A stretch of DNA of 64,000 nucleotides from Escherichia coli (GTDB taxonomy: Bacteria; Pseudomonadota; Gammaproteobacteria; Enterobacterales; Enterobacteriaceae), in NCBI RefSeq assembly GCF_003018235.1, contig NZ_CP027437.1. One strand, 5' to 3'. The notes below the pieces were generated by a model, which saw only the letters and a program-made list of their open reading frames with translations, was not told the origin of the DNA and did not search any database. How positions within the stretch are numbered: the first letter of the stretch is position 1; every line of letters begins with the position of its first letter. The position numbers were made by a program, and so were the translations under genes. Positions 1 through 46,726 of the stretch are shown in pieces.

Positions 1-864
1 GTGGTGGTTGACGACTGGGATATGGAAATCACCCACGTTATCCGTGGCGAAGACCATATCAACAACACGCCACGCCAGATCAACATTCTTAAAGCACTGA
101 AAGCGCCGGTACCGGTTTACGCGCACGTTTCTATGATCAACGGCGATGACGGCAAAAAACTGTCCAAACGTCACGGGGCGGTCAGCGTAATGCAGTATCG
201 TGATGACGGTTATTTGCCAGAAGCACTGCTGAACTATCTGGTGCGTCTGGGCTGGTCCCACGGCGATCAGGAAATCTTCACTCGTGAAGAGATGATCAAA
301 TACTTCACCCTGAATGCCGTCAGCAAATCTGCCAGTGCGTTCAACACCGACAAGCTGCTGTGGCTGAACCATCACTACATTAACGCGCTGCCGCCGGAGT
401 ATGTTGCTACTCACTTACAGTGGCACATTGAGCAGGAAAATATCGATACCCGTAACGGCCCGCAGCTGGCTGATCTGGTGAAACTGCTGGGCGAACGCTG
501 CAAGACGCTGAAAGAGATGGCACAGAGCTGCCGTTATTTCTACGAAGATTTTGCTGAGTTCGATGCCGACGCCGCGAAAAAACATCTGCGTCCGGTAGCG
601 CGTCAGCCGCTGGAAGTAGTTCGTGACAAACTGGCCGCGATTACTGACTGGACCGCTGAAAACGTTCATCACGCTATTCAGGCGACGGCGGATGAGCTGG
701 AAGTGGGTATGGGTAAAGTTGGTATGCCGCTGCGTGTCGCCGTAACCGGTGCGGGGCAGTCTCCGGCGCTGGATGTTACCGTTCACGCAATCGGTAAGAC
801 CCGCAGTATCGAGCGTATCAACAAAGCGTTGGCTTTTATTGCTGAACGCGAAAATCAGCAGTAA
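1..864 (+). CDS. gltX: glutamyl-tRNA synthetase, C-terminal 287 aa (5' end outside window)
   Basis: ORF open from position 1; sequence recalled as E. coli GltX C-terminal part; synteny with yfeD/yfeC/alaWX. Confidence 0.9.
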
Positions 865-883
865 TTAGCGCATAAAAGATAAA

Positions 884-913
884 CGGCAGGAGAGATACCC
901 CTGCCGTTTTTTA
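884..913. terminator. Rho-independent hairpin between convergent gltX and yfeD (bidirectional)
   Basis: stem cggcagg (884-890) / cctgccg (900-906) followed by T-run 907-913, with A-run upstream. Confidence 0.7.
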
Positions 914-914
914 T

Positions 915-1307
915 TTATTCTGATTCATCTATGTCGAGACGAGCAAGGAAATTACGAATTCCTTCGCGTGACAAAAATTGCGCAACTTTTTCCTGCTCAC
1001 TGTGAGTCATGTTGTCTATTGCGCTGATGATTTGCCGATAAGCAGGAGTGCGAATCCCCGGTGCGTATTCGGCAAGGGGTTCTTCGGCTTCCAGAAGCAT
1101 CGGCGTGTTATGGAAGGCTGGCGTGTTCTGAATAAACTCGCAAACTTGCGTATCGACCAGAATAAGTCTGGCACGACCGCCTTTCACGCCAGGAAATTTT
1201 TCCGTTTTCCAGCCTTTTTCTCTGATCCAACGGTTAACAGTTTGTTTAGCCACACCGAGGCATTCAGCCAGTTCTTCGGTGGTCATTTTATTGCGTAATC
1301 TTTTCAT
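915..1307 (-). CDS. yfeD: small putative HTH DNA-binding protein, 130 aa
   Basis: ORF track; paralogous to adjacent yfeC; K-12 synteny next to gltX. Confidence 0.8.
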   Translation of the reverse strand: MKRLRNKMTTEELAECLGVAKQTVNRWIREKGWKTEKFPGVKGGRARLILVDTQVCEFIQNTPAFHNTPMLLEAEEPLAEYAPGIRTPAYRQIISAIDNMTHSEQEKVAQFLSREGIRNFLARLDIDESE

Positions 1308-1308
1308 A

Positions 1309-1653
1309 TTATTTGCTATCGCGAATCCCTAAGCGTTGTAATAATCCGATAATCCCTTCCCGCAGAAGCAAGGATGTAAACTGTTTTTGTTCAACTGGCG
1401 TCATCTCTTTCGCCAGTGTCACCAGCAACACTTCAAGCGGCGCATCACCAGACAGGGCAGGCGCTTCTCCCTGACCTTCTGGACGTTCAGCATTGCGAAT
1501 ATATTCACGAACCTGTTCATTGACGTGAACCAGTCGGGCTTTGCCACCCTGGACGCCTGGTTTTGGTGACGTTGTCCAGCCTTCCTTGCGTACCCATTTA
1601 TTAATGGTCTGGCGGCTATAGCCGGTCAGTCTGGCAAGTTCATCTGGCGTCAT
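1309..1653 (-). CDS. yfeC: small putative HTH DNA-binding protein, about 114 aa (internal Met start chosen; ORF extends to 1668)
   Basis: ORF track; MTPDELARL start; paralog of yfeD. Confidence 0.75.
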   Translation of the reverse strand: MTPDELARLTGYSRQTINKWVRKEGWTTSPKPGVQGGKARLVHVNEQVREYIRNAERPEGQGEAPALSGDAPLEVLLVTLAKEMTPVEQKQFTSLLLREGIIGLLQRLGIRDSK

Positions 1654-1827
1654 CCTCTCCTTGAACATAACAATTCCCTGAATGTATGTGGGTCTATTAG
1701 TAGTTCATTTTATAACACCACTTTACAGGAAACCGTGACATGAATAACTACTGAATGCGAGCGGTTTTCCAAAATTGTTCATTTGCCTGATTTTTCAGCG
1801 ATTGAAACTACACGTTGCAATTTGCCG

Positions 1828-1856
1828 TTGACACATTCGGGCGGAATTCATATGAT
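1828..1856 (+). promoter_or_regulatory. sigma70 promoter of the tRNA-Ala operon: -35 TTGACA (1828-1833), 17-bp spacer, -10 TATGAT (1851-1856), GC-rich discriminator
   Basis: consensus hexamers read directly about 35 bp upstream of the first tRNA. Confidence 0.6.
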
Positions 1857-2003: not shown

Positions 2004-2079
<76 letters not shown>

Positions 2080-24407: not shown

Positions 24408-24759
24408 AGTTACCTTCTGTAGATACGAATTGTTGTATCGCAGAAGATTCCATGTCGACAGCGGTACACTCAATTGGTTGGGCCATCATGTACGACAATG
24501 GTTCCTGTAAAGAGTGTAAAGACTAGTCAGGACATAACCACGAGGAGCATGAATGCGGTGGCTCTACTTTATCACTGGCTGACTGCTTTCAGCTACTGAT
24601 TATTAATCGTGCAAAGTAAAAAATTTTCCGCACGCAATAGCGTTGCATTTAACGTGCTGTTTTCATTGATGCTTAGCAAAAATTGCCAGAGGTTAAGGAT
24701 TGTCTTACTATTAAAGTGACTGAAGTTACAGGTTTTTTAGCGCGGCAGGAGGTTGAGCT

Positions 24760-46651: not shown

Positions 46652-46726
46652 TGGTGTCCCCTGCAGGAATCGAACCTGCAATTAGCCCTTAGGAGGGGCT
46701 CGTTATATCCATTTAACTAAGAGGAC
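46652..46726 (-). tRNA. argW: tRNA-Arg(CCU), 75 nt
   Basis: reverse complement GTCCTCTTAGTTAAATGGATATAACGAGCCCCTCCTAAGGGCTAATTGCAGGTTCGATTCCTGCAGGGGACACCA. Confidence 0.9.

Follow-up and report, generated by a model that had tools for sequence, protein, structure and literature searches.

What are the products of yfeC and yfeD, two small adjacent genes lodged between gltX and a tRNA-Ala operon in Escherichia coli, where do they come from, and what do they regulate? The question is raised by a stretch of 64,000 nucleotides (nt) of the E. coli chromosome (contig NZ_CP027437.1 of assembly GCF_003018235.1; hereafter the window, numbered from its first letter), for which an earlier note, made from the letters alone, had described two minus-strand open reading frames (ORFs) as tandem paralogues coding for small helix-turn-helix (HTH) proteins of unassigned function. 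We consider it probable that the two genes make up one operon, a fixed part of the chromosome in Enterobacteriaceae, which encodes two paralogous transcription factors of ~120–130 amino acid residues (aa) derived from repressor c of the transposable phage Mu. The gene pair itself is already annotated, belongs to an existing Pfam family and is partly characterised; what is added here is an assignment of fold and ancestry, a duplication history, a map of the conserved regulatory spacer and a hypothesis that relates the pair to the c/ner switch of phage Mu.

The first gene of the operon, yfeC, occupies positions 1309–1668 of the minus strand (119 aa from the ATG at 1668; ORF, PF07037 and RefSeq annotation), and the second, its paralogue yfeD, positions 915–1307 of the same strand (130 aa; ORF and PF07037). 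The RefSeq annotation of the same stretch lists yfeD, yfeC, gltX, two tRNA-Ala genes and pdeA, which agrees with the gene names proposed in the earlier note and, together with the ORF listing and ARAGORN, with the position that it gave them. Between the stop codon of yfeC and the start codon of yfeD there is a single nucleotide (TAA-T-ATG, 1305–1311, minus strand), which indicates co-transcription and, probably, translational coupling. The proposed paralogy is confirmed by a whole-length alignment of the two proteins (36% identity, E = 5e-27), in which identity reaches 47% in the DNA-binding head and 26% in the linker and hairpin, the recognition helix and the wing being nearly identical. Both proteins cover the entire profile (positions 1–122 of 122) of PF07037 (YfeC-like, formerly DUF1323; gathering score 22.9 bits), YfeD with 206.1 bits (E = 2e-61) and YfeC with 173.0 bits (E = 3.6e-51), and YfeD also scores above the cut-off of HTH_17 (31.3 bits). 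Each is predicted to consist of a winged HTH domain, with a recognition helix (R/K)QT(I/V)N(K/R)W and a wing GV.GG.A, after which come a disordered linker and, at the C-terminus, a helical hairpin. The notion of small DNA-binding HTH proteins thus stands, on this prediction and on the Mu-type profile homology.

A sequence search of solved structures found none of a close relative; the closest was the N-terminal domain of MuA (phmmer, 1tns, E = 0.01), and the Mu repressor was weaker (E = 1.1). By hhalign, the YfeC family matches Mu c with a probability of 95.7% (E = 1e-8) over 109 columns, spanning c residues 16–132, that is, the DNA-binding domain and the helical region that follows it, and matches MuA residues 1–100 with 96% (E = 4e-9). 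Mu c itself passes PF07037 (23.1 bits, cut-off 22.9), sister proteins of YfeC from Yersinia, as well as a bridging protein from Chimaeribacter, pass both PF02316 (HTH_Tnp_Mu_1) and PF07037, and a sister protein aligns with Mu c by BLASTP with E = 5e-12. The Mu-type winged HTH homology present in YfeC and YfeD includes the GV.GG.A wing, and helices 78–112 of YfeC align with residues 100–132 of Mu c. In c, residues ~100–132 are considered to mediate oligomerisation. No counterpart of the regulatory C-terminal tail of Mu c (~135–196) is present, as YfeC and YfeD end where the alignment ends. This homology over the DNA-binding and helical regions, without the tail, leads us to regard YfeC and YfeD firmly, as far as profile comparison can tell, as shortened chromosomal homologues of Mu repressor c, and not as MerR, Xis or toxin–antitoxin proteins; they would presumably function as oligomers.

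The pair is old and stable. Eighty species loci, all from Enterobacteriaceae, were fetched from GTDB genomes, and in 78 of them yfeC is followed by its paralogue with a gap of −4 to +19 nt, usually of 1 nt (the contigs of the other two are too short to show a second gene); both ORFs are intact everywhere. Compared with the window proteins, YfeC retains 69–100% identity in these loci, and YfeD falls to 38–50%. Two divergent tRNA-Ala(GGC) genes stand upstream of yfeC at a near constant distance of ~220 nt in 18 of 19 scanned loci (one per species; the other locus has one tRNA gene), and gltX is convergent downstream in most loci, although it is not adjacent in most Kosakonia loci. Within E. coli, at least 80% of a 1.6-kb query is present in 5245 of 5426 complete genomes. 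A hidden Markov model search of 1.84 billion cluster representatives (E ≤ 1e-3) returned 191 PF07037-type matches, many of which are fragments or generic multi-HTH proteins, so that the family is very small; the full-length members that were looked up and carry a source name belong to Enterobacteriaceae or to Chimaeribacter (Yersiniaceae). Four of the representatives (P0182, P0190, P0202 and P0204) are long proteins with 4–14 tandem HTH units resembling the N-terminal region of YfeC, such as a protein of 628 aa with 10 repeats of ...GVS..TV..WVR.AGH.PR...; these tandem-HTH proteins are unrelated to the yfeCD locus.

In a neighbour-joining tree, the YfeC clade was recovered in 60 of 60 bootstraps and the core YfeD clade in 59 of 60, with much longer YfeD branches, which points to a single ancient duplication after which the two copies diverged unequally. 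The tree also supports monophyly of the gltX-linked lineage (58/60) and makes the Yersinia pair an independent duplication (56/60). In Chimaeribacter there is only one YfeC-like gene, which converges on gltX, and Cedecea shows the normal yfeC-yfeD-gltX order. The history that these sequences suggest is that of a single gene at gltX in a member of the Yersiniaceae and then, in Enterobacteriaceae, of an old tandem duplication whose copies diverged asymmetrically. Tandem duplication is recurrent in this group of proteins, with independent pairs in Yersinia, Photorhabdus, Pragia and the gammaproteobacterial contig L083, and Enterobacter sp. BIGb0383 (L051, 6001–7144) carries yfeC and two yfeD-type genes in tandem before gltX, with overlapping stop and start codons. 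In Serratia liquefaciens (L097, 453–4357), a single YfeC-like/Mu-HTH gene lies directly 3' of a MASE1-PAS-GGDEF-EAL gene, and the latter resembles pdeA (MASE1-GGDEF-EAL), which in E. coli and Cedecea neighbours the tRNA-Ala/yfeC locus; this arrangement may reflect an older linkage to a gene for a cyclic di-GMP enzyme.

That the function of these proteins is unassigned, as the earlier note had it, is out of date. Chromatin immunoprecipitation with exonuclease treatment (ChIP-exo) of the tagged proteins yielded 50 entries for YfeC and 43 for YfeD, and the YfeC motif was described as 'TTC-rich inverted repeats' (Gao et al., 2021; PMC8464067). The same article reports an RNA-seq experiment on a yfeC knockout with 124 genes up and 81 down, 20 of them called direct targets; yfeD rose by a log2 of 4.33 (~20-fold), yfeCD is listed as a direct target, and the authors relate the knockout results to earlier work in which a yfeC mutant showed increased release of extracellular DNA. 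YfeC is named 'DNA-binding transcriptional dual regulator' in NC_000913.3, and mutant phenotypes have been described: a yfeC::kan mutant of E. coli K1 colonised the small intestine of neonatal rats poorly and was less lethal, at a normal growth rate, and in enterohaemorrhagic E. coli LEE1 expression was not reduced when yfeC was deleted. Positions in the published peak lists refer to NC_000913.2, for which we verified an offset of +1978 with the YqhC site, which lands in the yqhC-yqhD spacer only after conversion, and with the K-12 annotation. As to ybaQ (b0483), its mRNA is 36-fold down when yfeC is knocked out, and one of the strong ChIP-exo peaks of YfeD is at this gene (signal-to-noise 29.7); this suggests repression of ybaQ by YfeD, so that the published 'YfeC regulon' may in part be due to overproduction of YfeD.

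We examined the K-12 sequence under 18 YfeC peaks. The strongest peaks have a centred TTCCGGAA-like palindrome (chaB-chaC, the chaA peak, TGTCCGGAAG; mukF, TTTCGGAAACTTCCGGAA; fdoG, ATTCCGGAAA; araJ, TTTCCGAAAA; ybbB, TTGCCGAAAA). With at most two mismatches, TTTCCGGAAA is found in 6 of the 18 peak windows, compared with 4% of background windows, and the TTCCGGAA-like consensus agrees with the verbal description of the motif in PMC8464067. YfeC and YfeD would bind short TTC/GAA inverted repeats of the TTCCGGAA type as oligomers formed via the hairpin. A shared DNA-reading head with a diverged linker and tail would fit partly shared targets, with different partners or affinities.

A site of this kind seems to be present in front of yfeC itself. 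In an alignment of the yfeC/tRNA-Ala spacer from 17 genera, a candidate yfeCD promoter, with an extended −10 element TGnTATAAA (1709–1717, minus strand) and no good −35, falls in the block TGCTATAA[AC]AT, conserved in all 17; a simple sigma-70 scan did not call it. Directly upstream, abutting the −10, a conserved block constitutes a candidate operator (1721–1734; CTTTACAGGAAACC on the plus strand, GGTTTCCTGTAAAG on the yfeC strand), which takes the general form GTTTTCC-N-GTAAAA across the alignment and resembles both the TTCCGGAA-type YfeC sites and the Mu-type CTTTTC..TAA repeats. The sequence TTTTCNNGTAAAA occurs at −65 to −53 from the yfeC ATG in 26 loci, with one other match across all fetched loci, and the promoter block TTTCCTGTAA has two mismatches to TTTCCGGAAA. 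Furthermore, the 11-mer CTTTACAGGAA of this block recurs ~95 nt upstream of the sfsB ATG in K-12; we estimate that ~0.02 such shared 11-mers would be expected by chance between two regions of ~220 nt. Matches to CTTTACAGGAA with at most one mismatch number three in the window (0.85 expected). A second exact copy, inside yfdX (24502–24512), has no counterpart among the published peaks and probably arose by chance.

The conserved promoter block, the recurrence of its 11-mer upstream of sfsB and the 20-fold rise of yfeD in the yfeC knockout together make autorepression by YfeC plausible; YfeC would act at the conserved TTTCC-N3-TAAA that borders the extended −10 of the yfeCD promoter. The spacer also contains, ~55 nt upstream of the proposed −10, the remnant of a 16-bp palindrome (1756–1771; alignment columns 131–146) with two 6-nt arms separated by 4 nt, TGCGAG-N4-CTCGCA in most genera, one arm of which has decayed in E. 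coli, Salmonella and Citrobacter. We read it as a protein-binding site on DNA, because the changes break the pairing and do not compensate for one another. An RNA hairpin was considered for the same element and rejected, given the variable spacer and the absence of compensatory changes.

The phage ancestry of YfeC and YfeD also bears on another poorly understood regulator. On contig L083, two tandem proteins matching both PF02316 and PF07037 are encoded between a divergent Ner-like gene (PF13693) and ispB, and a search with one of them led to a sister group of 114–133-aa proteins in Photorhabdus, Yersinia, Serratia, Budvicia, Pragia and Frischella. The gene order in Yersinia, Photorhabdus and Pragia is mdh, Ner-like (−), two c-like (+), ispB (−), rplU and rpmA, and in Frischella, at another locus next to proQ, a single c-like gene stands divergently to a Ner-like one. 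This divergent layout is that of c and ner in phage Mu, and the Ner-like neighbours are orthologues of E. coli sfsB, whose product (SfsB, or Nlp) is 64% identical to Mu Ner. The Yersinia spacer contains an inverted repeat, GTTAGT-N6-ACTAAC, with the geometry of the annotated Mu Ner-binding repeat CTAAGT-N6-ACTTAG, as well as runs of ATTTC(C)AAAT, which is only suggestive. In E. coli, ispB adjoins sfsB across a 227-nt spacer that holds no c-like gene, i.e., the Yersinia arrangement minus the pair. A tblastn search of the 64-kb window for a Ner homologue found none, the divergent neighbour of yfeCD being the tRNA-Ala operon and not ner.

In the ChIP-exo data, the only peak position common to the YfeC and YfeD lists (3332954, converted to 3334932–3334961) lies at codons 8–18 of sfsB, with a signal-to-noise ratio of 57.6 for YfeD, the highest in its list, and of 28.6 for YfeC. 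This exact position is in no other transcription factor list of the dataset, YciT having a weaker peak ~40–70 nt upstream. sfsB is an H-NS-type silenced, BglJ-RcsB-activated gene. In the preferred reading, both YfeC and YfeD would act on sfsB (nlp), the counterpart of Mu ner in the cell and, in other Enterobacterales, the gene that neighbours those of the sister proteins divergently. We put forward tentatively, as a possibility clearly less probable than the Mu ancestry, that YfeC/YfeD and SfsB are the two halves of a domesticated Mu-type c/ner switch, intact in Yersinia, Photorhabdus, Pragia and Frischella and split in Enterobacteriaceae. The c-like gene would have moved to the pdeA-gltX region and duplicated there into yfeC and yfeD, and sfsB would have stayed beside ispB. 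YfeC and YfeD would still repress sfsB together with their own operon, and SfsB may act back, which would make a trans-acting, possibly bistable circuit of the core genome. Our literature search, which did not extend to older subscription papers, found no published connection between c/ner and YfeC, and a 2025 preprint on CRISPR activation and interference has nothing specific on a link to sfsB. If true, the hypothesis would describe a phage lysis-lysogeny switch that was domesticated and then physically split, would provide a partner for the 'Ner-like protein' of 1989 and would account for two sets of poorly understood E. coli regulators (YfeC and YfeD on one side, SfsB/Nlp on the other), linking the three as remains of one Mu-type repressor/anti-repressor module.

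Several observations weigh against a pair of Mu-derived regulators with these targets. E. coli YfeC stays below the PF02316 threshold of 23.3 bits (14.6 bits, E = 0.041) and YfeD is not listed for that profile. The TTTCCGGAAA test is partly circular, the consensus having been derived from the same peaks, and 12 of the 18 peaks are without it. The 20-fold rise of yfeD could stem from the deletion cassette. The ChIP-exo peak assigned to 'yfeC' (2057–2090; NC_000913.2 2516052–2516085) lies ~400 nt from the yfeC start; it covers the 3' end and terminator of the second tRNA-Ala gene, away from the promoter of yfeC, and was therefore not counted as evidence of autoregulation; it is probably an artefact at a typical hyper-ChIPable place, or else an unexpected site in the tRNA operon. 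Since the two tRNA-Ala genes are identical, reads at this peak are multi-mapping. Peaks shared by unrelated transcription factors, such as that at mdtL, recur in the dataset. The sfsB peak falls within the coding sequence, where no match to TTCCGGAA is good (three mismatches in the best one), and sfsB was not differentially expressed in the yfeC knockout in M9 glucose; it is, however, a silenced gene, as stated above, and YfeD is 20-fold up in that strain. Finally, formation of a heterodimer found no support in a weak test, an AlphaFold2 model of a YfeC-(G4S)6-YfeD fusion (33-row paired alignment; the linker is artificial, the alignment shallower and predicted aligned errors are not included), which gave a predicted template-modelling score (pTM) of 0.31, with the per-residue confidence (pLDDT) of the hairpin down from ~92 to ~75 and no confident inter-subunit arrangement.

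The strongest of the competing views, although we hold it to be unlikely, is that YfeC and YfeD are low-specificity architectural or nucleoid-associated proteins that coat or bend AT/TTC-rich DNA, as Xis, BldC or RacA do, with most reported targets weak or artefactual, no dedicated regulon and no link to sfsB. Their closest folds are indeed architectural proteins (Xis, BldC, RacA and Par), 40% of the YfeC peaks are intragenic, several recur for unrelated factors, the palindrome is found in only a third of the peaks examined, and the expression phenotype is broad and diffuse. Moreover, 8 of the 50 YfeC entries (yaiT, adrA, yaiA, aroM, araJ, sbcC, yajI and xseB) are clustered in ~51 kb (NC_000913.2, 390–441 kb), ~1% of the genome, where ~0.5 entries would be expected, several of them with a high signal-to-noise ratio; either amplification of this region in the tagged strain or a genuine binding domain could lie behind the cluster. 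A protein of low specificity is nevertheless hard to reconcile with top peaks that share a centred TTCCGGAA-like palindrome, with an sfsB peak position common to both paralogues and in no other factor's list, and with the strong constraint on YfeC (the 69–100% identity given above), and the Ner-like adjacency kept at two different loci argues for a specific partnership.

It is less probable still, and we regard it as improbable, that the two proteins are dedicated regulators of their neighbours, the divergent tRNA-Ala(GGC) operon and/or gltX, and of other translation genes. The constant synteny with the two tRNA-Ala genes at ~220 nt and the convergent gltX of most genera speak for it, as do the YfeC peak on the tRNA-Ala 3' end, the YfeC peaks near rpsU, rplU, rpmB, rpmH, trmA and selU and the increase of rpmH and rpmJ in the knockout. 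However, tRNA and ribosomal-protein genes are classic ChIP false positives, gltX is not a neighbour in most Kosakonia loci and the Serratia relative lies elsewhere, and no effect on gltX or alaWX appears in the accessible parts of PMC8464067. The spacer blocks nearest to the tRNA promoter, moreover, look like ordinary UP/Fis elements. This promoter, divergent from yfeCD, is TTGACA-17-TATGAT followed by a GC-rich discriminator (1828–1856, plus strand; 11 of 12 matches in the scan, invariant in 17 genera), and ~30–45 nt upstream of its −35 a block of invariant alignment columns (1783–1800), CGCTGAAAAA(G/T)CAGGCAA on the yfeC strand, could, from its position and by analogy with stable-RNA promoters, be a Fis/UP-type element of the alaWX promoter.

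Very improbable, and largely refuted, is that the pair is an inert relic of a mobile element, namely an excisionase or recombination-directionality factor, or a prophage repressor, left beside the tRNA genes and without a present host function. The excisionase/Mu-type N-terminal domain, the JGI name 'AlpA' for relatives of these proteins and the adjoining tRNA genes are what it has in its favour. Yet the flanks of yfeCD are gltX, the tRNA genes, pdeA and nupC, with neither integrase nor transposase nearby, the genes face the 5' end of the tRNA genes and not the 3' end used for integration, the same locus is found in 80 Enterobacteriaceae species, with a single-copy form by gltX in Chimaeribacter, and the intact ORFs, the high conservation of YfeC and the knockout phenotypes do not suit a relic. 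An association of yfeCD with mobile elements was rejected on database searches as well: tblastn of YfeC and YfeD against 50,697 phage records gave no match; the matches in IMG/VR were to the N-terminal HTH domain only (29–50% identity); and the 13 plasmid matches include megabase-sized, chromosome-like records and were typed non-mobilizable in 12 cases, the smaller records not having been inspected. As to the check on mobile elements that the earlier note proposed, the pair is absent from the phages and true plasmids searched and from the vicinity of an integrase or transposase, but its ancestry, which the note did not mention, leads to a mobile element, the repressor of phage Mu.

A type II toxin–antitoxin pair, as predicted for yfeD/yfeC by RASTA-Bacteria (2007) and repeated as a label in a 2018 transposon-directed insertion-site sequencing (TraDIS) paper, is refuted on architecture and has next to no probability left, for although the genes are small, tightly coupled and one has an HTH, their products are paralogous, share one DNA-binding fold, match no toxin family in Pfam or NCBIfam (the NCBIfam scan gave sub-threshold HTH-type matches only, one of them to the MqsA antitoxin family), are vertically inherited and not patchy, and yfeC deletions are viable with normal growth although yfeD rises 20-fold. 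Three points are corrected here: the toxin–antitoxin label of yfeC, the 'MerR family' name of YfeD and the use as a promoter site of the 'yfeC' ChIP-exo peak, which lies on a tRNA gene.

The locus has some further features. The K-12 RefSeq start of yfeC is the internal Met6 (window position 1653, 114 aa), whereas genomes annotated with the Prokaryotic Genome Annotation Pipeline (PGAP) and the ORF give 119 aa; we favour the longer form because the N-terminus M-x-K-E-R-M, including the five additional residues M-x-K-E-R, and the AGGAA Shine-Dalgarno-like block before the first ATG are kept in 17 genera. The 3' end of gltX (1–864, plus strand) is convergent with yfeD, with a spacer of 50 nt between them, in which a consensus scan alone detected a terminator-like hairpin of 12 pairs with a T-run (881–909, minus strand) that is likely the end of the yfeCD transcript. 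The two tRNA-Ala(GGC) genes (1889–1964 and 2004–2079, plus strand; ARAGORN and Rfam) are divergent from yfeC. The YfeC of the window is 100% identical to that of K-12 and 94% to that of E. albertii; the corresponding values for YfeD are 93% and 96%, which points to allelic divergence or recombination of yfeD within E. coli, as judged from these identities. Elsewhere in the window, a tRNA-Arg(CCU) gene is located at 46652–46726, and from ~37 kb on the ORF coordinates are shifted by ~1.3 kb relative to strain SC418 (99.9% identical), which indicates an indel or a mobile element somewhere in 25–37 kb; SC418 has sucrose (csc) genes and a prophage in this part (about 25–46 kb).

Comparison with known systems places YfeC and YfeD closest to the early regulators of phage Mu. 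Mu c and the N-terminal Iα domain of MuA (PF02316; PDB 1qpm/1g4d and 1tns) have a homologous winged HTH, with a GV(K/Q)GG(K/R)A wing, and the binding repeats of Mu c are T/C-rich, like the putative sites of YfeC and YfeD. Mu c has 196 aa, whereas YfeC and YfeD, with 119–130 aa, are without its C-terminal tail; unlike Mu c, they are chromosomal, vertically inherited and tandem-duplicated, and the E. coli pair adjoins neither ner nor a transposase. Mu c is divergent from ner, a layout shared by the sister proteins of YfeC but not by E. coli yfeCD. SfsB/Nlp (PF13693, HTH_35) is likewise a domesticated regulator of the Mu early region, although it belongs to another fold family, is not a paralogue of YfeC and YfeD and lies ~0.8 Mb from yfeCD in E. 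coli. The DNA-binding domains of BldC, mycobacteriophage Pukovnik Xis, RacA and pSK1 Par, effector-less MerR/excisionase-like winged HTH domains, are only 10–21% identical to YfeC and YfeD, and occur as bare domains of ~50–70 aa or with other oligomerisation modules, whereas in YfeC and YfeD the domain is extended by a linker and by a helical hairpin of the Mu c type. In the MerR family, from which YfeD takes its PGAP name, a long dimerisation helix, an antiparallel coiled coil, comes immediately after the winged HTH and precedes a C-terminal effector-binding region, features that YfeC and YfeD lack.

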